Shown here piece by piece: positions 2,774 through 30,557 of a stretch of 64,000 nucleotides of DNA. The DNA comes from Chloroflexota bacterium (GTDB lineage: Bacteria; Chloroflexota; Chloroflexia; QHBQ01). The notes under the pieces were generated by a model. That model ran no database searches. It was given only the letters and a program-made list of their open reading frames with translations, and had not been told where the DNA came from. Positions within the stretch are counted from its first letter, which is position 1, and every line of letters starts with the position of its first letter. The stretch covers positions 19,590 through 83,589 of the forward strand of contig JAYUUN010000093.1 in the NCBI GenBank assembly GCA_043754535.1, read 5' to 3'. Both the position numbers and the translations under genes were made by a program.

Positions 2774-3468
2774 GAAGCCACCCCTTCGACGATAGAGCCG
2801 TCACGCATCTGGATCACCTGATCGGCATAGCTGGCAACCTTGGGGTCGTGGGTGACGAGGATCATGGTCAGGTTCTGCTCGCGGTTGAGGCCGCGCAAGA
2901 GGGCCAGCACCTCCGCCCCAGTCTTACTGTCCAGGTTGCCGGTCGGTTCATCGGCAAGCAAAATGGCGGGTTGGTTGGCAAGGGCGCGGGCGATGGCAAC
3001 GCGCTGCTGTTCGCCGCCAGAGAGGATGTTGGGCCGATGATCGAGGCGGTGGCTGAGGCCAACCTGGGTGAGCAGTTCGCGGGCGCGCAGCCGTCGCTGG
3101 GCCGCATTGCTGCCCGCAATCATCAGCGGCAGTTCGACGTTCTCCCAGGCAGTACGGGTGGAGAGCAGGTTGAAGCTCTGGAAGATGAAGCCGATCACCC
3201 GTTGGCGATAGTGGTTGAGCGCGCCGCTCCTGGCCCTGGCAATGTCCTGGCCTGCCACCCACAACTGGCCGCTGGTCGGGCGTTCCAGGCCGCCGAGTAG
3301 ATTGAGCAGCGTACTCTTGCCGCTGCCACTCGCGCCGATGATTGCGGCGAAGCAGCCACGCTCGATCACAAAGCTGATGCCATTCACTGCCGCGACAACG
3401 TTGTTCCCCATCTTGTAGCGGCGCACCAGGTCTACCACTCGAATCAGCGGCTCTGCCTGTCCGTTCAA
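2770..3468 (-). CDS. ABC transporter ATP-binding protein (MacB/LolD-type)
   Basis: Walker A GASGSGKST, ABC signature LSGGEQQRVAIARAL and Walker B ILLADEPTGNLD are all present. Confidence 0.9.
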   Translation of the reverse strand: MNGQAEPLIRVVDLVRRYKMGNNVVAAVNGISFVIERGCFAAIIGASGSGKSTLLNLLGGLERPTSGQLWVAGQDIARARSGALNHYRQRVIGFIFQSFNLLSTRTAWENVELPLMIAGSNAAQRRLRARELLTQVGLSHRLDHRPNILSGGEQQRVAIARALANQPAILLADEPTGNLDSKTGAEVLALLRGLNREQNLTMILVTHDPKVASYADQVIQMRDGSIVEGVAS

Positions 3469-3576
3469 TCTCGCTCCCCCTCCCTAGCAACACTGCTGCA
3501 TTATAAACCTTGTTGGCCCTGGCTGCAAAGCAAAACAGCCTCCCCCCTTGCGGGAGAAGGCTGCGCTGCTGCTTGC

Positions 3577-5238
3577 TTACTTCAGGCCGAAGTAACAGAT
3601 GCTCTTTTTGCTACCGTCGGGGGTCTGGAAGGTCATGGCGTAGACCCCCTTTGGCGCACGGCTGCTGAGACCCCTGGTGGCGCGCAGGCCAACCCGCCCG
3701 CTGCTATCCACCGAGAGGGTAGGCTCCTCGTCAGTGCCGAACAGGTCGCGGGCAGAAACCACGCTCTGATCGGGGGCCGTGAGGTAGAAGCGCACATCGT
3801 CACCGGGGGCGAAGCCAATGCCAACGAAGGCGACGGCAACGCCGGGATCGGCGCAAGGCGGGGTGGCGTTGGTGTTATTGCCGCTTGGCTTCGGCACCTG
3901 GCTACACACGTCGGTGTTCGCCCCAGGGACGGGGGTTGGCTGGCCTGCCCCGCCACCGCTGCCGCTGGCTGGTAGTACCTTGAAGCGAGCGATAGCCGTC
4001 ACCTTGCTGCTTGAGCCATAGAAGGTGTAAGCCCACACGCCGGTAACGTCGAAGATGGCGGGGTCGAGCGGCAGTTCACCGCTGATGCGCCCGCTGGCGG
4101 GTGCTCCACCAGGAACCGGGCGGGAGGTGCCAACTACGTCGCCGTCGGGCGTGGTGATCCAGAAGGAAATGTCCTCACCGCCCTTGAAGCCGTAGAAGCT
4201 GACCTGGATCGTCGTACCCTGGCGGGCGCAGTTGGGACTCACGGTTGCATTCTCGCTGGCGGGGATGCCGCTGCAATCAGGCTGCTGAGCGACCGGGGTA
4301 GGAGGGATCGGGGTAGAACCGGGGGTGGTTGTGCTACCAGCCTGGGTGGGCGGATTGCTCGGCTTGCCTGCGCCGTTGTACACCCAGTCGTAGTAGTGGC
4401 CGCCGATGTTGCCCATCTGCACGCGGTAGGCTGCCTGCTCACCAGGTACGTAGGTGACCACGCGCCGCTCGAAGACCTGGATCAGCACGTCGCTTTGGGT
4501 GCCGCCGATCTTGACGTTGGCCCAGTAAGGCTCGCTGATCGGGAAGCCAGTGGTGTAGAACCAGGGGTCGCTGAGGCGGCCATTGACCGTCTTGCCGCCC
4601 TCGGAAACCGGGCCGCTCTGGTTGAGGAAGTCCCAGATTACGGAGGGGATGTTGTGGCCGGTCTCGCTAGCGAAGTGGACGTACTTAGTGGCAGTCATGT
4701 TGTCATAGGCGAGATTGGCACCCACCTTCGCATCCTTGCTGATCGTCTGTACGGCATAGCCGCCGCTGCGGTCGCCAACCTTGCCAGTCAGAGTGTTGAA
4801 GCTGGCGTAGGTGGGGGCATTTGCGTCGTTGCCGTCGGAGGCGAGCGGGATGTTAGCCGGGTAGATCGTCTTGAAGTTGCCGTCACCAATCTGCTGGCGG
4901 CCCTCAACCATCTCGGCGGCCAGACGGCCATTAACTACGTAGAACTTGCTGCCGGCCTGTTCGCTGGCATTGATCTCCATGCGGCTCTTGTCGAAGTATT
5001 GTACGTCGCGAGCGACCCCATTGTAGGTCTCCTTGACCACGCGGCTGTTCTCGACCGGCCCCCAGTAGTAGCCACGATTGACCCCAGGCTGGCCTACCAG
5101 CGAGTCGGTGCGCTGCCAGGTGGCCTTGAAAGCGTCGTTGGCAAAGGTGGCCTGAGCCTGGGCCTGCACGTTGTAGCCAGGCGCGATCATCGCGCAGAGC
5201 AGAATAGCTACCAATATAGCACTAATACGTTTACCCAT
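3577..5238 (-). CDS. secreted hypothetical protein with a signal peptide and Pro/Thr-rich linkers
   Basis: The track ORF is 3577..5283. I moved the start to the ATG at 5238 (MGKRISAILVAILLCAMIAPG...AQA signal peptide, GAGG/AAGGAG upstream). Two Cys-containing C-terminal modules are separated by PT/PG-rich linkers (NPPTQAGSTTTPGSTPIPPTPVAQQP; GGGAGQPTPVPGANT). Confidence 0.5.
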   Translation of the reverse strand: MGKRISAILVAILLCAMIAPGYNVQAQAQATFANDAFKATWQRTDSLVGQPGVNRGYYWGPVENSRVVKETYNGVARDVQYFDKSRMEINASEQAGSKFYVVNGRLAAEMVEGRQQIGDGNFKTIYPANIPLASDGNDANAPTYASFNTLTGKVGDRSGGYAVQTISKDAKVGANLAYDNMTATKYVHFASETGHNIPSVIWDFLNQSGPVSEGGKTVNGRLSDPWFYTTGFPISEPYWANVKIGGTQSDVLIQVFERRVVTYVPGEQAAYRVQMGNIGGHYYDWVYNGAGKPSNPPTQAGSTTTPGSTPIPPTPVAQQPDCSGIPASENATVSPNCARQGTTIQVSFYGFKGGEDISFWITTPDGDVVGTSRPVPGGAPASGRISGELPLDPAIFDVTGVWAYTFYGSSSKVTAIARFKVLPASGSGGGAGQPTPVPGANTDVCSQVPKPSGNNTNATPPCADPGVAVAFVGIGFAPGDDVRFYLTAPDQSVVSARDLFGTDEEPTLSVDSSGRVGLRATRGLSSRAPKGVYAMTFQTPDGSKKSICYFGLK

Positions 5239-22679: not shown

Positions 22680-22804
22680 TCTGGCAAAATCCTCACGCTA
22701 GTCCGCGAAGCACCGATGGCATGGGGCTATGGGCTGCTGGCCGATGACCAATAACCAACAGCACAAGGCCAGAGTGAGATGAAGCCTCAAGCCCTAGCGA
22801 TAAT

Positions 22805-22815
22805 ATTATAGCACA
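22805..22815 (-). promoter_or_regulatory. extended -10 element TGTGCTATAAT on the minus strand
   Basis: It lies about 125 nt upstream of the GT-C/NHL gene start at 22679. Confidence 0.4.
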
Positions 22816-22966
22816 CTAGCCCGCTAGAAGCCGAGTCCTGTCGTACTACCGCTAATGCAGGATAAGAGGACAAATGGGGTTTGGTAAGGGGTTGGTAAGG
22901 CGATTTGGGCTGGGCCAAGCAAGCGGCAGCCTCAGCGCAACTAGTTAGTGGGTGGCTGCTTTCTGG

Positions 22967-24463
22967 CTAGCGACCTACCTTGTTGGGGCCGAGGCTGACG
23001 CGCTGGGCGCGGCTACCGTCGTGCGAGAGTAGTATGCGCTCGTCGCCAACCACAGTCTCTAGATGCACAGGCCGCCCCCACAGTTGGTGGATGTACTGCA
23101 AGACCTTCTCCGCATAGCTCGCATCCAATTCCTGGCCCTCGTAGTGGTGGCGCAGGTAGAGTTCGTGGTTGCGGTTGTAGTCGCCATCGTCAACGGTGAT
23201 GTAGGGCTGGCCGAAGTTGGTCATGCTAGCAACGATGCCATCGCGCACCTTCTCCCAGTTCTTCTCGACGATCACCCACTCGTTGCCCTGCTTGGCGTAG
23301 AGGTAGAGGTCTAGCTCGGCGATCAGTTCTTTGGTCAGGTAGTTGCGGAGGAAGGATACATCATTGTCCATCTCGCGCACCTCGAATATCTTGGCCCGAC
23401 CCTGGCCGGGAACGCGCTTGAGGCGGTCACGCTCCTCCTCGGTCGGTGCGTCCCAGCGGCGTTCGATGGACTCGTAGAGTTTGAGGCCCAGGTAGTAGGG
23501 GTTGAGTTGGAAGCGCGAGTGATGCATCACGCCCGCATTAACTTTGGCGTACTCAGTGTAGTCGTCGCTACTCATCTCAAACTCGCGCATGATGCTCTGG
23601 TGGTGGTAAGCGGCCCAGCCCTCGTTCATAATCTTGGTCTGCATCTGCGGCACAAAGTAGAGCATCTCCTGATGCACGATGCCGATCACGTCACGCTGCC
23701 AATCCTCAAGGTGGCGGGCGTGCTGCTGGAGAAAGAGGAGCAAGTCCTTCTCTGGCTGGGCCGGGAAGCGGCGACGCTCGCTCTCCTTCTTCTCCTTCTC
23801 TTTCTCCTTCTCACTCTTGAGCGGCAAAGCGGCTTGCTGGGCCGCCTCTGCCTCAGTCGGCAGCCCTGGTAGCGACCAGAGGTCGTCGTAAGCAGACTCA
23901 GCCACGTGCGGCTTCACCTGCTCGCGGCGGTTGCCCTCGCTCTCCTCACCCGCTGTGGCGAAGCTCTGGTGCGGATCGATGTGTTCGGAGATCGAGAGTA
24001 CCGCGTCCAGGAACTCCTCCACCTTCTTGCTGCCATGCTGGTACTCATATTGGCGGATACGCTCGGCATTGAGGCTGGCGGTCTCGATCATGTGGCGGTT
24101 GGTGCGCTGGAAGTAGATGTTGTTCTTAAAGAAGTCCACATGGCCGAGGACATGGGCGGCAACCAGTCGGTTGGCGGTCAGGCTGTTGTTCTCCAAGAGG
24201 AAGGCGTAGGCAGGGTTAGTGTTGATCACCATCTCGTAGATGATGCTCAGACCAAAGTCGTACTGCATCTTCATCTTGTTGTACGCCTTGCCATGCGTCC
24301 AGTGGCTGAAGCGACCGGGAATGCCATATGCACCGAACTCGTACATGATGCTGGCAGGCACCACCTCGAAGTGGACGGGGTAGAAGTCCAGCCCGTTGGC
24401 TTTCGCCATCTCGACGATCACCTCAATATCTTTGGTTAGCTGCTCGTAGTCTTGTTCGTTCAA
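22967..24463 (-). CDS. spoVR: SpoVR-family protein
   Basis: It aligns residue for residue with the B. subtilis SpoVR N-terminus (GLDFYP...FGAYGIPGRFSHWTHGKAY). It has a TTG start with AGAGGGT 6 nt upstream. Confidence 0.9.
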   Translation of the reverse strand: MNEQDYEQLTKDIEVIVEMAKANGLDFYPVHFEVVPASIMYEFGAYGIPGRFSHWTHGKAYNKMKMQYDFGLSIIYEMVINTNPAYAFLLENNSLTANRLVAAHVLGHVDFFKNNIYFQRTNRHMIETASLNAERIRQYEYQHGSKKVEEFLDAVLSISEHIDPHQSFATAGEESEGNRREQVKPHVAESAYDDLWSLPGLPTEAEAAQQAALPLKSEKEKEKEKKESERRRFPAQPEKDLLLFLQQHARHLEDWQRDVIGIVHQEMLYFVPQMQTKIMNEGWAAYHHQSIMREFEMSSDDYTEYAKVNAGVMHHSRFQLNPYYLGLKLYESIERRWDAPTEEERDRLKRVPGQGRAKIFEVREMDNDVSFLRNYLTKELIAELDLYLYAKQGNEWVIVEKNWEKVRDGIVASMTNFGQPYITVDDGDYNRNHELYLRHHYEGQELDASYAEKVLQYIHQLWGRPVHLETVVGDERILLSHDGSRAQRVSLGPNKVGR

Positions 24464-24467
24464 TGGT

Positions 24468-25080
24468 TTACCCTCTGGTTAGCCTCTGGTAGGCGGCACG
24501 AACTGCTACTTCTAGTTCGCTAGCTTGAACTTCGTAGCGAGCAAAGTTTTGTATGTTGTCTGGCTTCATGTGAATCTGGCCTTCGCCTACGTTACCTCGG
24601 TGCTGACCTTTTGAGTAGCCTCTAATCTGGGTTAGCTCATCTGCCTTGATCACCCAGAACCGGGCAACATCAAGCCAGACAGCTATAAAGACAAAAACTG
24701 AAGCCTGTGCAACCTTCAATTGCTGAAAGTTCATGTCGAAGTAATAGCCAGAAGTTGACAGGAGTGGAACACTCGCACCTTTATCCCCTTGCGGGGCTTG
24801 CCCCATGCTCTACTGGTTTTGACTTCTACTTTAATATTATCTAGAGTAGTATCGTAGCTGTTGCCCAAAGGTGGTGTCATGCCAGGAACGTTGCTCATTA
24901 CTTGCATAACCCCCACTTGCCAGTGTCGGTTGGAGCGGAGAACGCAAAAACGTGAGCGTAGGTCTGACTTTGATCAGCCATGTACTCCTGCTTCAGCCGC
25001 TCATACGCCGCTATGACCGCTGGATCAGCCAGTTGCTCAAACAGCGCATCCAGCCTTTGCCACAGTTCGTCAATCGTCAA
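24468..25080 (-). other. low-GC (~48%) 613-bp segment with three overlapping small ORFs in three different frames (60, 61 and 112 aa)
   Basis: Windows of ~60 nt here have 42-53% GC, against ~62% in the flanks. The three ORFs overlap by 19 bp and 76 bp. The first has a TTG start 9 nt after the methyltransferase stop and no Shine-Dalgarno sequence. The third ends 5 nt before spoVR, inside the spoVR Shine-Dalgarno sequence. The middle frame carries a D-x9-EVK pattern (SYDTTLDNIKVEVK). Confidence 0.3.
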
Positions 25081-25089
25081 GTGCTTGCC

Positions 25090-26064
25090 TCAATCGAACA
25101 ATGATAGCTGCCCACTATCATCCACAATGCTGTCAATGGTGCCGTCAAGTTCAGCCGCAAACGGATTACTGTTCTGCCAGCCGCGCTTGCCGCTAGCTCG
25201 CCAGCGTTCCAACCTGCGGATCGTGATCTCGCAGAAGACCGCATCGTTGTCCATCGTGAAGCAGCGGCGGCCCGATAGTTCAGCTTGCAGCAGGGTCGTG
25301 CCAGAGTGAGCGAAGAAGTCCAGCACGGTGTCGCCTGGCTGCGAACTGGCGTTGATGATCCGCTCGATAGCCTTGAGCGGCTTCTGTGCGTAGCAACCGT
25401 TGACGTTTTCTTCCAGCCGGTAGAAGACCTGCTGGACATCGAACCAGACGTTGCCTGCCCGGATGTAAGGCGACTTGCCACGCTCGGTGTTCTCGGTCAG
25501 TTCGCCTTCAACTTCCTTGTAGTAACCCTTGACTGCCTTCGGTATCTCGGTGTACTGCGGCGTGAAGAAGGGCTTGCCCAGCGTGTAGTAAAGCAACTCC
25601 TGCCGAACAGCCATCCAGTTGTGTTGCGTGCCGTAGCCACGCTGGTTACGCATGGTGATGAAGCTGCGTGAAGAAAACGGCGTGTTGCTCATCATCAGCA
25701 TAAACTGCGGCAACGGCTGATAGTGGTTGTCCTGATCCGCCCCCAGCCAAACATAGAGGCTGCTAGTAGGCAGCAGCACAGCAGCGGTGTTGTCCACCCA
25801 CTGCCGACACCATGCAGCGTACTCGTCGGCTGAACGGCTGGCGAAGGCAACGAGGTTGTAGGGTAGGTCCTGCACCGCCAGAGCCGCTTTGTCGTTGCCG
25901 CACAGCTTACTAACATCAGCGGCGGATGCGGCATCCAGGCAGCCAACGCGGTGGCCGCCAACGGCATCCACCCACACCTCGCCCGGACGCAGACGGCAGA
26001 AGTCGAGCAAGCGGATGCGTAGCTCCTGCTCCTTGTCCAAGCGTGGTAGTGGATTAGCGATCAT
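25090..26064 (-). CDS. beta-class N6-adenine/N4-cytosine DNA methyltransferase (motif IV before motif I)
   Basis: Motif IV is DLPYNL, a variant of DPPY. Motif I is QPGDTVLDFFAHSGTT, followed by ...AQKPLKAIERII.... The start overlaps the yeaH stop (ATGA at 26061..26064). No intact restriction enzyme gene lies adjacent. Confidence 0.8.
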   Translation of the reverse strand: MIANPLPRLDKEQELRIRLLDFCRLRPGEVWVDAVGGHRVGCLDAASAADVSKLCGNDKAALAVQDLPYNLVAFASRSADEYAAWCRQWVDNTAAVLLPTSSLYVWLGADQDNHYQPLPQFMLMMSNTPFSSRSFITMRNQRGYGTQHNWMAVRQELLYYTLGKPFFTPQYTEIPKAVKGYYKEVEGELTENTERGKSPYIRAGNVWFDVQQVFYRLEENVNGCYAQKPLKAIERIINASSQPGDTVLDFFAHSGTTLLQAELSGRRCFTMDNDAVFCEITIRRLERWRASGKRGWQNSNPFAAELDGTIDSIVDDSGQLSLFD

Positions 26065-27254
26065 CTTTGGGCAGCCTCCGGCATCCCCAGCGTGGGGTCG
26101 AAGAACTTCTTGAGGGCGGGGTAGACATCGCGCTTGTCGGTGATCGTCACGTTGATGAAGTGCTTGTTCTGCAACTTACTGAAGGCCGACATCAGCGTGC
26201 TGCTGCTGCCCCGGTAGCCTTCACGTATCTCGCCATAGCCGAAGATGTTGCAGATTTCGAGTAGCTTGTTGACCTGCTGCACACACAGTTCGTTGTCCCA
26301 GGGTAGGTTGTCACCGTCACTGAAGTGGAAGGGGTAGATGTTCCAGTCTTGTGGTGGATAACGGTCGGCAATCACCTTGAGGGCCAGTTCGTAGGCCGAG
26401 GAGACCTGGGTGCCGCCGCTCTCACCCTTGTGGAAGAAGTCATCCTCGCTAACTTCATGCGCTTCGGTGTGGTGGCTGATGAAGACGACACGCACGTTAT
26501 TGTACTTGGTTCGCAAGAAGCGCACCATCCAGAAGTAGAAGCTGCGGGCAATGTACTTCTCGAACTCGCCCATGCTGCCGCTCACGTCCATCATGGCGAT
26601 TACCACCGCGTTGGACTGGTAGCGCACTTGCTGCTCCCAGGTCTTGAAGCGCAGATCCTCCTTACGCACGTCATGAAAGTGGGCATCACCATGTGCGGCG
26701 TTGCGCTTGATATTCTCGCGGATCGTACGCCGCTTGTCGAGATTAGGCATCATGCCAGTGCGTCGCACGTCGGTAAACTTGATCGTCTCCGACTCCATCT
26801 CCTGCTGCTTGCGCTCCTCCAGGTAGGGGAGGCCGAGGTCGGCAAAGAGCAGGGCCGCCAGTTCATCGAGGCTAACTTCGGCCTCAAAGTAGTCGTAGCC
26901 TGGCTGGTCACCCGCTTCGCCCTGACCCTTGCCTGCGCCCTTGCCCTTCTTATCGCCCGCCTGCCCGATCACATCGCCGACGCGGGACTCGCCCTCTCCA
27001 CCACCCGCGTGCTGACCCGTGCCTGGGTCGTAGCGGAAGCGATACTCGTCGAGGCTGCGGATCGGCACCTTGACCGTCTTCTTGCCGTCGCTGAGGATGA
27101 TACTTTCGTTGGAGACAATATTGCCGAGGTTCTTCTTCAGAGCCTCCTTGATCTTCTCCTTGTGGCGTTGCTGATCAATCGGCCCCTTGCGATGCAGCGA
27201 CCAGTCGTGCTGCGAAATACTGGTGCTGCCAGGGGGGAGAAGGTTGTTGCTCAT
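26061..27254 (-). CDS. yeaH: YeaH/YhbH family protein (DUF444, vWA-like)
   Basis: Its position between prkA and spoVR, its length and its conserved C-terminal vWA-like region (MMDVSGSMGE...) all fit. The ATG at 27254 is the likely start; the track TTG at 27272 has no Shine-Dalgarno sequence. Confidence 0.85.
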   Translation of the reverse strand: MSNNLLPPGSTSISQHDWSLHRKGPIDQQRHKEKIKEALKKNLGNIVSNESIILSDGKKTVKVPIRSLDEYRFRYDPGTGQHAGGGEGESRVGDVIGQAGDKKGKGAGKGQGEAGDQPGYDYFEAEVSLDELAALLFADLGLPYLEERKQQEMESETIKFTDVRRTGMMPNLDKRRTIRENIKRNAAHGDAHFHDVRKEDLRFKTWEQQVRYQSNAVVIAMMDVSGSMGEFEKYIARSFYFWMVRFLRTKYNNVRVVFISHHTEAHEVSEDDFFHKGESGGTQVSSAYELALKVIADRYPPQDWNIYPFHFSDGDNLPWDNELCVQQVNKLLEICNIFGYGEIREGYRGSSSTLMSAFSKLQNKHFINVTITDKRDVYPALKKFFDPTLGMPEAAQR

Positions 27255-27348
27255 AACATACCTGCCTTGCAAAGGGGCGAGTAGCCACCCACCCCACGTA
27301 GAAGTTGCGTTTGACAGAGGGTACTGCCAAGCTCTGGTGGCTGCCCAG

Positions 27349-29244
27349 CTAGCGGTTCAGCAGGCTGCCAACGTACTTGAGCAGTTCGTTCGCGCTGGCG
27401 GGGGTGTAGCCGTGCTGCTCGACCAGACGGCTAACTACCTCGTTGACGCGCTTCAGTTGCTCTGGGTCGGGCGTGCGACTGTTGGTGGTGATCTTCACGA
27501 TGTCGCGCAGATCGGCGAACAGCTTGCGCTCAATCGCTTCCTTCAGCCGCTCGTGCGAGGTGTAGTCGAAGCTCTGCCCACGCCGCGCCAGGGTGGAGAT
27601 ACGGATCAGGATTTCTTCGCGGAACGCCTTCTTCGCGTTCTCGCTCACCCCGATCTGCTCCTCGATGCTCCGCATCAGTTGCTCGTCGGCATCCATCTCC
27701 TCCTCGGTGATCGGGTCCTTGAGCTTCTGCTTGTTGCAATATGCCTCTACGTTGTCCAGGTAGTTGTTCAGCACCGTCTTGGCCGACTCCTCGAACGAGT
27801 AGACGAAAGCCTTCTGCACTTCCTTCTTGGCGATCTCGTCGTACTCCTTGCGGGCCTCGGCGATGAAGTTGAGGTACTGCTCGCGTTCTTCCTTGTTAAT
27901 GCTAGTGTGCTGCTCGAAGCCGTCACGCAAGGCACGCAGAGCGTCAATCGGGGTGATGAACTCGATCCCCTCCTTGACTAGCGCGCTACTCAGGCGGTTG
28001 ATCACGTAGCGCGGGCTGATACCGCTCATCCCCTCGCGTTGGGCCTCCTCCTGCAACTCGCGCACATCCTTGCCCTTGAAGTCATCAAGCTCCTCACCAT
28101 CATACAGCTTGAGCTTCTTCATCAGGCTCATACCATTCTTCTTCGATGGCTCAAGCCTGGTCAGCACCGCGAAGATGCTGGCGACCCGCAGCGTGTGTGG
28201 GGCGATATGCACACCTTTGAGTGCGCTCTGCTGGATCAGCTTCTCGTAGATACGCACCTCGTCGCTGACTCGCAAGTTGTATGGCACCTTGACCAGGATG
28301 ATGCGGTCTTGCAACGCTTCGCTCTTGCGGTTGCCAACGAAGCTGCTGTACTCGCTCTCATTAGTGTGGCTGACCACTACTTCATCAGCGTAGATCATAC
28401 TGAAACGACCCGTCTTGATGTTCTGCTCCTGCGACAAAGTTAGCAGCACGTAGAGAAACTTCTCATCGCTCTTAAGGATTTCGATGAACTCCATCATGCC
28501 CCGGTTGGCAATGTTCAGTTCACCGTCGAAGCGATAGGCGCGAGGGTCGCTCTCACTGCCCACCTCACCAATGGTGCTGAGGTCAATCGAACCGACCAGT
28601 TCGGAAATGTCCTGCGACTTCGGATCGGAGGGGGTGAAGGTGCCGATGCCAATGCGTGCCTTCTCGCTGAAGGAGAGGCGGCGTACTGGCACCTTCTCCA
28701 TGCGTCCCTCGTAGGTATGTTCCAGGTCGTAGGCGCAGCGGGGGCAGAGATCGCCCTCGATGTAAACCCCATACTCGCGCTCGATGTCGGCGCGCAGTTC
28801 GCGCGGGATCAGGTGCAGCGGCTCCTCGTGCATCGGGCAATCGCGGATGGCATAGACCGACCCCTGCTCGCTGCGGGTATAGCTCTCCAGCCCACGCTTG
28901 AGCAGGCTGACCAGGGTAGACTTGCCGCCGCCCACCGGCCCCATCAACAGGAGGATGCGCTTACGCACTTCTAGCCGTTGCGCGCCGCTGCTGAAGTATT
29001 CCACGACCTGCTGCAACGACTTGTCCAGGCCGAAGATTTCGTCGTCGAAGAACTTGTAGTGCGCTTCACCCCGCTTGTTGGTCTCCACCCCACCGTTGAT
29101 GATCATGTCGTAGATGCGGGCGTGCGAAAGTTGCGCAGCACGTGGGTTTTTGGTGACAACCTCGAAGTATTCGGAGAACGTTCCCTCCCAGTTTAGAGCC
29201 TTCTCGATCGCCCGGAACTCTTCCAGCTTCTTGATGATGTCCAT
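27349..29244 (-). CDS. prkA: PrkA/YeaG serine protein kinase (AAA+ N-terminal domain)
   Basis: The ATG at 29244 with AAGGAG 8 nt upstream gives MDIIKKLEEFRAIEKALNWEGTF, which matches the B. subtilis PrkA N-terminus. Walker A is GPVGGGKST. Confidence 0.9.
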   Translation of the reverse strand: MDIIKKLEEFRAIEKALNWEGTFSEYFEVVTKNPRAAQLSHARIYDMIINGGVETNKRGEAHYKFFDDEIFGLDKSLQQVVEYFSSGAQRLEVRKRILLLMGPVGGGKSTLVSLLKRGLESYTRSEQGSVYAIRDCPMHEEPLHLIPRELRADIEREYGVYIEGDLCPRCAYDLEHTYEGRMEKVPVRRLSFSEKARIGIGTFTPSDPKSQDISELVGSIDLSTIGEVGSESDPRAYRFDGELNIANRGMMEFIEILKSDEKFLYVLLTLSQEQNIKTGRFSMIYADEVVVSHTNESEYSSFVGNRKSEALQDRIILVKVPYNLRVSDEVRIYEKLIQQSALKGVHIAPHTLRVASIFAVLTRLEPSKKNGMSLMKKLKLYDGEELDDFKGKDVRELQEEAQREGMSGISPRYVINRLSSALVKEGIEFITPIDALRALRDGFEQHTSINKEEREQYLNFIAEARKEYDEIAKKEVQKAFVYSFEESAKTVLNNYLDNVEAYCNKQKLKDPITEEEMDADEQLMRSIEEQIGVSENAKKAFREEILIRISTLARRGQSFDYTSHERLKEAIERKLFADLRDIVKITTNSRTPDPEQLKRVNEVVSRLVEQHGYTPASANELLKYVGSLLNR

Positions 29245-29786
29245 TGCTCTGTCTCCTTCGCAAGCGGGACGGTTGCCCAAAACCGCCGCGCTCACCTGCC
29301 TTGACTGTTGGGGACGGCCCCGCTGAACGGTATAATAATTATACGCCAGCTTGCCGACCGGGGTTGCACAACACTGCCTACCAACAATGCCACGAAGTTA
29401 AAGATCAGGTTAGAATTGCCTTGACCAGGTACAGAAAGAGGACACTGCCGCGCCACTGAGCGGCTCTTGCGAACCGTCGGTTGGCGACACTGCCCTCCTT
29501 ACCAAACTACTATACAGCGATCTTGCGGGCGCATACGCTTTGCCCTTCTAGCTGCCACTGCTGTGTTTCAAGGTTAAGATCATCTGGCTCTTTTACCCAT
29601 TCTTTGGCAAGGGGGCAGCTTAGGGACTGCCTACGTTACTCTTATCTTACCATACGCTGCAAATCTTGACAATAGCGCATTGGTACCGCCAGCTAGCAGC
29701 CAACTGATGACAATATGCAGGGAACGTGCCAGACGCAAAAGCCGCCCCGATGTTGCAGGGCGGCTGCGATGGGCCAAAAGCCGCAC

Positions 29787-30557
29787 CTACACATCCAACT
29801 CCATGTCCTCGTGGCTGATGATCAGCATATCTGCGCCAAGCTCCTCGATATGGGGGGCTAGCTCAGCTCGAATCTCGTCCTCATAATGCGGGTTGATGTG
29901 GGTGATCACGAAGGGAACGTAGTGACCGACCACCCGCTTGAACTCCTCCATCTCGCGGCGCACAAAGGTGGGGGTGAGGTGGCAAAAGGCAACCGCCGAC
30001 CCCTCCATGCGGTTGGGGTAAGTACATTCGGTGATCACCATCTGCGGCCTGATCCGCTCCCAGATCGGGGCCATGTAGCCCGCCGTATCGCTGCTGAAGA
30101 AGACGTTGTGTTCGCCGTACTCGACGAAGAAGCCGGTACTCGGCACTGCATGGATGGTAGGGTAGGAAGTGATGCGGTAGCCGTCAAACTCAACTGACTG
30201 GTAGGGTTCCAGGTCGTGGAAGATCAGGCTAGGAGACTTTGGCGAAGGTATCTCAACCAGCTTAGGCCAAACCGACTCGTTGAAGATGTGAGCCATCATC
30301 ACATCTTTGACCACTGGCAGGCAGTACACGTCAATCGTGGTGCTGTAGAGAGTGTTGAAGCCGATAATCGGCACATCCTTTATGTGATCGTAATGGTAGT
30401 GGCTGAGGAAGATGTAGCGTACCTGCTCCTGCTCGGCCAGGGTCAAGCCAGAAGCGATGCTACCTGCATCAAGGGCGATATGGTCGTCTACAAGAACAGA
30501 GAGGAAGCGACAGCCCTTTGCCTCACCCTGGTGTGCGCCAACGATCTTGAGCCTCAT
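29787..30557 (-). CDS. MBL-fold metallo-hydrolase
   Basis: It has the HYHYDH (HxHxDH) motif and the downstream His/Asp ligands. Confidence 0.75.
   Translation of the reverse strand: MRLKIVGAHQGEAKGCRFLSVLVDDHIALDAGSIASGLTLAEQEQVRYIFLSHYHYDHIKDVPIIGFNTLYSTTIDVYCLPVVKDVMMAHIFNESVWPKLVEIPSPKSPSLIFHDLEPYQSVEFDGYRITSYPTIHAVPSTGFFVEYGEHNVFFSSDTAGYMAPIWERIRPQMVITECTYPNRMEGSAVAFCHLTPTFVRREMEEFKRVVGHYVPFVITHINPHYEDEIRAELAPHIEELGADMLIISHEDMELDV

Follow-up and report, generated by a model that had tools for sequence, protein, structure and literature searches.

CcrM, a beta-class enzyme of the PF01555 family, and Dam are regulatory orphan N6-adenine (m6A) methyltransferases. Methyltransferases can also be orphaned by decay of the restriction endonuclease gene, a well-known evolutionary route, and when restriction-modification (R-M) systems decay the endonuclease gene is usually the first to die. 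The methyltransferase (M) gene described here belongs to PF01555, as CcrM does, and lies in a stretch of 64,000 nucleotides of Chloroflexota DNA (contig JAYUUN010000093.1), which is called the window below. An original prediction, made from the sequence of the window, had cast it as a stationary-phase epigenetic regulator. The gene is very probably the survivor of a horizontally acquired, decaying Type II R-M cassette rather than a new epigenetic regulator. Its product gives only a weak, partial match to the NCBIfam CcrM model (37.9 bits vs. a cut-off of 830) and scores 62.5 against a cut-off of 292 for PRK11524 (YhdJ), so it is neither a CcrM nor a YhdJ equivalog. It further differs from CcrM and Dam in that it lacks the expected clade-wide conservation, its insertion being found in one species, and adjoins a pseudogene of a restriction endonuclease (R).

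RsrI-type Type II R-M systems resemble the locus in the beta-class motif order of the methyltransferase (D(P/L)PY before DFFAHSG), in its length of about 320 aa, in the co-oriented arrangement of M followed by R and in a PD-(D/E)XK endonuclease. They differ in that R in the window is a pseudogene from a family without sequence similarity to solved structures, and the similarity to M.RsrI is so distant that its recognition sequence cannot be transferred. Like solitary methyltransferases derived from R-M systems, the locus has an intact M open reading frame (ORF) beside a degraded R gene. Unlike them, it has this remnant within a three-gene signalling operon that is conserved, and the population data given below suggest that the window copy is still decaying rather than conserved. 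The BisI-family enzymes NhoI and Eco15I are modification-dependent PD-(D/E)XK nucleases in which QxK replaces (D/E)xK (PMC11347163). Their identity to the R family of the window is only 9–15%, and the R family differs from them in having an invariant ExK and in being encoded beside a methyltransferase.

In most bacteria prkA, yhbH and spoVR form a single operon (bioRxiv 10.1101/072470). The features of this operon in the window, and of the genes inserted in it, are as follows.

27349–29295, minus strand: prkA, gene 1 of the operon, encoding the PrkA AAA+ protein (Pfam AAA_PrkA 2.5e-129, PrkA 5.3e-97)
26061–27272, minus strand: yhbH/yeaH (DUF444; TIGR02877 spore_yhbH 5.3e-164, over the cut-off)
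26075–26079, minus strand: GGAGG, a Shine-Dalgarno-like sequence 10 nt 5' of the methyltransferase ATG and within the yhbH 3' end, read from the junction
25090–26064, minus strand: beta-class DNA methyltransferase (M) gene, 324 aa, ORF unbroken (PF01555 N6_N4_Mtase 3.9e-25)
25858–25869, minus strand: motif IV codons D66-L67-P68-Y69 of M; codon 67 is CTA in the window and CCA (Pro) in L101
24468–25080, minus strand: pseudogene of a Type II restriction endonuclease (R; tblastn matches in different frames, PADLOC)
24910–24914, minus strand: poly-G tract at the first R frameshift; G5 in the window, L001 and L003, G6 in L002 and L004
24818–24853, minus strand: remnant of the PD-(D/E)XK catalytic motif of R (YD...VEVK), aligned with the invariant D112, E121 and K123
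24793–24796, minus strand: CCCC tract at or near the second R frameshift, where one added base would restore the frame
22967–24463, minus strand: spoVR/ycgB, last gene of the operon (Pfam SpoVR 2.3e-140, SpoVR_C 8.7e-16)

The three operon genes share the minus strand, have family matches over the cut-offs and are contiguous in relatives. The longest prkA ORF has 648 aa; in public annotations of conspecific contigs the protein has 631 aa, corresponding to a start at about 29244. The placement of the methyltransferase between yeaH and spoVR, inside the operon, had been predicted and is confirmed, with every gene co-oriented and identified by family matches. So is the predicted overlap of its ATG with the yeaH stop: the plus strand reads tcat at 26061–26064, which on the minus strand is ATGA, an overlap of 4 nt between the methyltransferase ATG and the yhbH TGA. 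The argument for coupling depends on this start codon being the true one. Relatives align with the methyltransferase from residue 1 (the nearest starts MLTYPLPRLDKE, compared with MIANPLPRLDKE in the window), and thus the annotated ATG is upheld over a possible alternative start. On the other side, the R pseudogene begins 9 nt past the methyltransferase stop and spoVR starts with a TTG 4 nt past the stop of the R pseudogene, within a methyltransferase–spoVR gap of 620 bp. A scan of positions 22700–29800 for promoters and terminators gave counts no higher than in shuffled sequences, with seven terminator-like sites against an expectation of 6.4, and is uninformative. Based on the 4-nt overlap and on terminator-like sites at the shuffle level, the methyltransferase is probably co-transcribed with the prkA operon. 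Its transcript would arise by read-through from the prkA promoter, and its translation would be initiated through its own Shine-Dalgarno sequence in the yhbH 3' end and may be coupled to the end of yhbH translation.

The match of the methyltransferase to PF01555 (89.5 bits vs. a cut-off of 26.7) covers profile positions 3–219 of 221, and PADLOC MTase_II models match it as well (best 1.3e-23). The order of its motifs is that of the beta class, with DLPY (residues 66–69) N-terminal to the AdoMet-binding DFFAHSG (residues ~249–255). By sequence, its closest solved structure is M.RsrI (7.7e-17 over a 242-residue alignment), and M.MboIIA is also among the closest solved relatives. The Asp-type motif IV and the similarity to these two proteins indicate that the enzyme is probably specific for N6-adenine. 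Avoidance of palindromes was considered as a guide to its target site and rejected, as many GC-rich palindromes are depleted in the window and no single site can be assigned. For instance, CGGCCG is observed 0 times vs. 42 expected, TGGCCA 0 vs. 41 and CGATCG 2 vs. 43, and CCGG, GCGC and other GC-rich palindromes are likewise depleted.

The original prediction had also held that no cognate restriction enzyme lies beside the methyltransferase. This is overturned by the stretch at 24468–25080, a frameshifted Type II endonuclease pseudogene. The stretch contains three short minus-strand ORFs in three frames (24898–25080, 24731–24916 and 24468–24806). In the Chloroflexia metagenome-assembled genome that carries the nearest relative of the methyltransferase, the M gene is followed 9 nt later by a 200-aa ORF, and the three window fragments all match successive parts of this ORF. 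A conceptual R protein, made by joining the fragments and adding one base at each of the two homopolymer tracts, retrieves 361 homologues. Nearly all are 238–249 aa long, and they come from many phyla and have no Pfam domain. The locus thus serves as a correction: its odd position in an operon invites a story of regulation, and the small ORFs next to it reveal a dying R-M cassette.

The R protein has no match in Pfam, NCBIfam or PDB sequence searches and is identified only by PADLOC and by fold comparison. Intact members of the family match the PADLOC model REase_II PDLC03414 ("Type II restriction enzyme") over its full length (4.8e-83). The same model is matched by the last window fragment alone (4.7e-22) and by the conceptually repaired window protein (3.4e-26). 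The residues D112, E121 and K123 (ExK) are invariant in the family, and an intact homologue resembles PD-(D/E)XK restriction enzymes in its fold; the family thus has both a nuclease fold and its catalytic residues. At nine other loci a member of the R family lies directly 3' of a methyltransferase, and at eight of them it is full length. In seven of these the partner is a PF01555 methyltransferase (L016, L018, L077, L085, L087, L096 and L180), and in Azonexus fungiphilus (L014) the full-length R follows an unrelated gamma-class N6_Mtase/Eco57I/TaqI_C methyltransferase. The ninth locus is that of the nearest relative (L019), which pairs a PF01555 methyltransferase with an R gene containing a stop codon. 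R-linked cassettes are well below their hosts in GC content (e.g. 40% vs. 65% in L016). The pairing downstream of a methyltransferase and the low GC content are the signature of mobile Type II R-M systems, so the window locus reads as an M gene adjoined by a dead R gene, and 24468–25080 appears to be the pseudogene of the cognate endonuclease.

Alternatively, the ~240-aa family could be another kind of methyltransferase-associated PD-(D/E)XK nuclease, for example one that acts in repair or nicking, and the methyltransferase would then never have belonged to an R-M system. Neither Pfam nor NCBIfam has a model for the family, and the PDB has no relative at the sequence level. Among the family's nearest structural neighbours, a homing endonuclease and resolvases of Holliday junctions stand beside restriction enzymes. 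Against this stand the full-length PADLOC match to a Type II restriction enzyme, the patchy distribution of the family across phyla, its pairing with two unrelated methyltransferase classes, the difference in composition between cassettes and hosts and the repeated loss of R where the methyltransferase persists. Patchy spread, pairing with two classes, host-unlike composition and repeated R loss are all typical of Type II R genes. A role other than restriction is therefore highly improbable.

The R gene of the window is not intact. Compared with its homologues it has two frameshifts and internal deletions of ~38 aa and ~7 aa. The larger deletion takes out the near-invariant SVYPFNEYE region, the PLYVKAL segment is gone and a Leu stands at the family-invariant R171, while the YD...EVK and SKGQHRGNVGEGQ motifs are retained. 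The same lesions occur in conspecific contigs from independent assemblies, which shows that they are real and not assembly errors. Among the six conspecific contigs that cover the R stretch (L100 ends before it) there are no substitutions; four have G5 at the poly-G tract, as does the window, and two have G6. In a five-sequence alignment of 671 nt the length of this tract is the sole variable column. The CCCC tract and the second frameshift are identical in all conspecific contigs covering that stretch.

The variable poly-G tract raises another explanation, in which the system is still an active defence and R works through a programmed or phase-variable frameshift, since G6 repairs the frame. 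It does so at the first frameshift only, and the second is present in every conspecific contig that covers it. In addition, ~38 aa (including SVYPFNEYE) and 7 aa are deleted, R171 has changed to Leu, PLYVKAL is lost, and for a contingency locus a homopolymer of 5–6 nt is short. Given the deletions and the fixation of the second frameshift, a phase-variable R is very unlikely, and a still-active defence has hardly any claim to credence. These lesions make the locus a remnant of an R-M system and not one that works. The original prediction had called the methyltransferase orphan-like. It is solitary in function today and is not an orphan by origin, given the dead R gene directly downstream.

A scan of one genome per species found 284 relatives of the methyltransferase, of which the best 80 are 62–77% identical to it and span Chloroflexia, Blastocatellia, Ignavibacteria, Planctomycetota and other groups. 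About 70 of these 80 genome loci are solitary, and the R-linked members are scattered over many phyla. The nearest relative (77% identical; contig JBBRMT010000134, the Chloroflexia genome called L019 here, also listed as L009) is R-linked, and its methyltransferase and that of the window are sisters in a neighbour-joining tree built without bootstrap. In L180 the methyltransferase is 72% identical and an intact R gene lies 3 nt downstream. The next-closest methyltransferase (P0003, 75% identity) is outside a prkA context, on a contig that stops directly after the gene. Solitary Chloroflexia copies often overlap a gene for an HD-domain protein by 4 bp. One HD-linked methyltransferase from the same metagenomes (P0004, 71% identical) was considered as a second copy in the same genome and rejected: its flanks have ~48–50% GC vs. 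61% in the window, which places it in another organism. In a plasmid collection nothing matched the R protein, and the matches to the methyltransferase were all distant (<30% identity). In the tree, which was not bootstrapped, the solitary members of Chloroflexia and of Blastocatellia cluster by taxon, which suggests that these copies have been inherited within their groups.

The composition of the inserted genes is foreign to the operon. GC3 is 0.46 in the R pseudogene, 0.73 in the methyltransferase and ~0.80 in the operon genes; in L009, hicB (0.53), M (0.59) and R (0.51) compare with ~0.8. A mosaic (recombinant) methyltransferase was considered as the cause of the higher GC3 in the window and rejected, because sliding-window identity is closest to L019 throughout. 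With the methyltransferase near the host value and the R remnant still at 0.46, the methyltransferase has probably long been functional in this lineage, which suggests that its expression and selection went on well after acquisition.

Polymorphism was assessed by comparing the window with seven independently assembled conspecific contigs (nucleotide identity >99%). In the methyltransferase there are five nonsynonymous sites (P/L67, N149S, E186D, F269L and R287S) and one synonymous site. The corresponding nonsynonymous/synonymous counts are 2/14 for prkA, 1/7 for yhbH and 0/4 for spoVR, or 3/25 for the flanking genes together, and the ratios 5:1 and 3:25 differ with p = 0.0011 by Fisher's exact test (only six methyltransferase sites). 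N149, at which two of the seven conspecific alleles have Ser, is invariant in 85 family members. The methyltransferase ORF is unbroken in all seven conspecific alleles, and the window allele retains the family-conserved residues apart from P67L. The methyltransferase is thus intact yet gaining amino-acid polymorphisms, one of them in a catalytic motif. In this small sample the pattern fits relaxed constraint after the loss of R, and some diversifying selection may also have acted on the methyltransferase.

One of these polymorphisms is the unusual motif IV. DLPY, as the original prediction had read it, is correct for the window allele (residues 66–69) and incorrect as a fixed feature, since L101 has DPPY. 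The nearest relative of the methyltransferase has DPPY. Among the 120 closest database proteins motif IV is DLPY in 82, DPPY in 36, DMPY in one and DFPY in one. Placed on the tree, all R-linked members and all solitary Chloroflexia members have DPPY, whereas DLPY is characteristic of a large solitary clade of Blastocatellia/Acidobacteria, in which it is fixed and the protein otherwise highly conserved. It follows from this distribution that the Leu of the window is an independent change, and the window DLPY appears to be a recent C-to-T polymorphism that is still segregating. It also follows from its fixation in a conserved clade that DLPY alone does not mean inactivation, and the window enzyme may retain activity. 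A literature search did not find "DLPY" together with "methyltransferase", and one for mutants of the prolines in DPPY gave nothing directly usable. The clade with fixed DLPY is a candidate for separate study.

The same observations bear on the possibility that the methyltransferase has been domesticated as a solitary enzyme and kept for stress- or starvation-timed m6A regulation through the prkA operon, with DLPY as a tuned variant. Domestication would agree with the ORF being intact in all alleles, with the tight packing of the genes (the ATGA overlap, the methyltransferase's own Shine-Dalgarno sequence and the 4 nt between R remnant and spoVR), with the shift in GC3 of the methyltransferase while the R remnant has kept its own, with the apparent inheritance of solitary family members within Chloroflexia and Blastocatellia and with the fixation of DLPY in the Blastocatellia clade. 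However, the insertion is present in one species and, in a different slot, in one relative, and 77 of 77 other operons are empty. The excess of nonsynonymous changes over the neighbouring genes, the replacement of a family-invariant residue in two of seven alleles and the segregation of both DLPY and DPPY also speak against it, and domestication is unlikely. A more specific version, in which the prkA operon captured the methyltransferase after the loss of R as a starvation-timed m6A enzyme and DLPY is a recurrent adaptive retuning, independent of that in Blastocatellia, and not damage, is decidedly doubtful. The proposal of a stationary-phase epigenetic regulator finds no backing in the relaxed constraint, the 0 of 77 operons and the adjacent R pseudogene, and no support for growth-phase regulation was found.

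The preferred account, decay of an acquired cassette, can be put as a sequence of events. A two-gene cassette, with a beta-class and probably m6A-forming M followed by an R of ~240 aa with a PD-(D/E)XK fold, would have been acquired horizontally and lodged, co-oriented, within the prkA-yhbH-spoVR operon of a Chloroflexia lineage. The R gene would have died first, through the two frameshifts, the two deletions and the substitutions at family-invariant residues, and the M ORF would have outlived it to become solitary. With no R partner to guard against, M would drift under relaxed constraint, and DLPY would be one of several recent polymorphisms. With R dead, methylation would protect against nothing at this locus, and M may be kept by neutral persistence or for a secondary role.

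Within this account, the only unusual feature is the landing site of the cassette. When the window YhbH was scanned against metagenome contigs, 80 loci were returned, three of them conspecific. Neither the methyltransferase nor R has a match at any of the 77 yhbH loci of other species (68–76% YhbH identity), and spoVR follows yhbH at ≤222 nt (median 59) in all 73 loci that reach far enough. Among the best 80 of the 284 methyltransferase relatives, prkA, yhbH or spoVR is near the methyltransferase only in L019. There the gene order is prkA, hicA, hicB, M, R, yhbH, spoVR, with the cassette in the prkA–yhbH slot. The methyltransferase is therefore absent from 77 of 77 related prkA operons, and L019 has the cassette in another slot. 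The arrangement had been thought undescribed; its rarity is upheld by the 77 empty operons, and its novelty is not, as relatives such as L180 have a normal adjoining R gene.

In the R gene of L019 an in-frame TGA replaces the invariant R196, and R171 has changed to Leu as in the window copy. The two loci thus offer a natural snapshot of R-M decay, in which the lesions that killed R differ between two sister lineages. The simplest reading of their history would be that an ancestor acquired the cassette once and that it was later rearranged within the operon, and two independent insertions could also have produced both loci. In a weaker variant of the domestication reading, prkA operon spacers may be a preferred site for the landing or relocation of addiction modules, since two related genomes have the M-R cassette in different slots and two genomes have hicAB in the prkA–yhbH spacer. 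Addiction modules (hicAB and M-R) have been inserted repeatedly into prkA operon spacers, and such insertions are a further candidate for separate study.

In the window, the beta-class methyltransferase of the prkA–yhbH–spoVR operon has DLPY at motif IV, with leucine at the first proline of DPPY. A large clade of solitary methyltransferases (copies without a gene of the restriction endonuclease family R alongside) was found in Blastocatellia and Acidobacteria, at 66–72% identity to the window protein (contig loci L021–L070 and others; database proteins P0009–P0120). Motif IV in this clade is DLPY nearly throughout, with DMPY, DVPY and DFPY occurring rarely, and DLPY is present in 82 of the 120 database proteins closest to the window methyltransferase. 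DPPY is kept by every R-linked member of the family and by every solitary Chloroflexia member. The conservation of a first-proline variant across the orphan Blastocatellia/Acidobacteria clade may make a separate study worthwhile.

Several Chloroflexia genomes, including Candidatus Chlorohelix, carry a solitary methyltransferase of this family in another gene context, in which it overlaps an HD-domain gene by 4 bp at that gene's 3′ end and the pair is preceded by an alpha/beta-hydrolase gene:
L005–L007, L010–L013, L020 and L054: overlap of the methyltransferase with the HD-domain gene (domains PF01966 and PF13286, HD_assoc).
This arrangement looks like a conserved housekeeping context of the orphan copy.

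Within the R pseudogene of the window, one short tract varies in length among conspecific contigs:
24910–24914: poly-G tract, G5 or G6.
The tract is G5 in the window and in four conspecific contigs (L001, L003, L099 and L101) and G6 in two others (L002 and L004), and its length is the sole difference between the window and these six contigs over the methyltransferase–spoVR stretch. Farther afield, three Planctomycetota loci (L090, L092 and L097) have distant R-family homologues (25–37% identity) immediately downstream of the methyltransferase but encoded on the other strand, the two genes being convergent. At a Terriglobia locus (L083), R is reduced to a 26-aa relic after the methyltransferase.

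The spacer between prkA and yhbH holds a HicA toxin gene in two related genomes:
L009:1176–1631 (spacer region): HicA (Pfam, 4.6e-20).
L166:5346–6000 (spacer region): HicA (Pfam, 1.2e-6).
In the first of these, HicA is followed by a HicB-like antitoxin gene (2.3e-9); in the second, a small ORF adjoining HicA resembles HicB and had no match in the Pfam search. Two further spacers are enlarged, to 671 nt (L103) and 828 nt (L176) against a median of 128 nt, and contain other small ORFs. The prkA–yhbH spacer appears to be a collecting place for small selfish modules.

At L009, gene calling splits yhbH (3390–4586) into one ORF of 233 aa and another of 154 aa, and a single tblastn alignment spans the break between them. 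The unbroken alignment suggests an in-frame stop, which could be either a real lesion in the operon of this metagenome-assembled genome or an assembly error. The SpoVR gene of a metagenome contig (L138:7117–9202) is broken by an in-frame insert of ~400 aa after the residues MNEGWA. Its first residue is Cys and its last two are HN, followed by Ser, and the insert resembles an intein carrying a homing-endonuclease domain. Directly upstream of prkA in the window lies a further gene:
29787–30557, minus strand: metallo-beta-lactamase-fold protein, 256 aa.
Its Pfam matches on conspecific contigs are Anti-Pycsar_Apyc1 (PF23023), Lactamase_B_2 and, weakly, PDEase_II, and the protein may be a cyclic-nucleotide phosphodiesterase.

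Across the window (1–64000), many GC-rich palindromes occur at counts far below Markov expectation (observed versus expected: CGGCCG, 0 versus 42; TGGCCA, 0 versus 41; CGATCG, 2 versus 43; TGCGCA, 6 versus 54; CTGCAG, 1 versus 28; GGCGCC, 0 versus 26), and CCGG occurs 155 times versus 328 expected. This depletion suggests long past exposure to many restriction systems.
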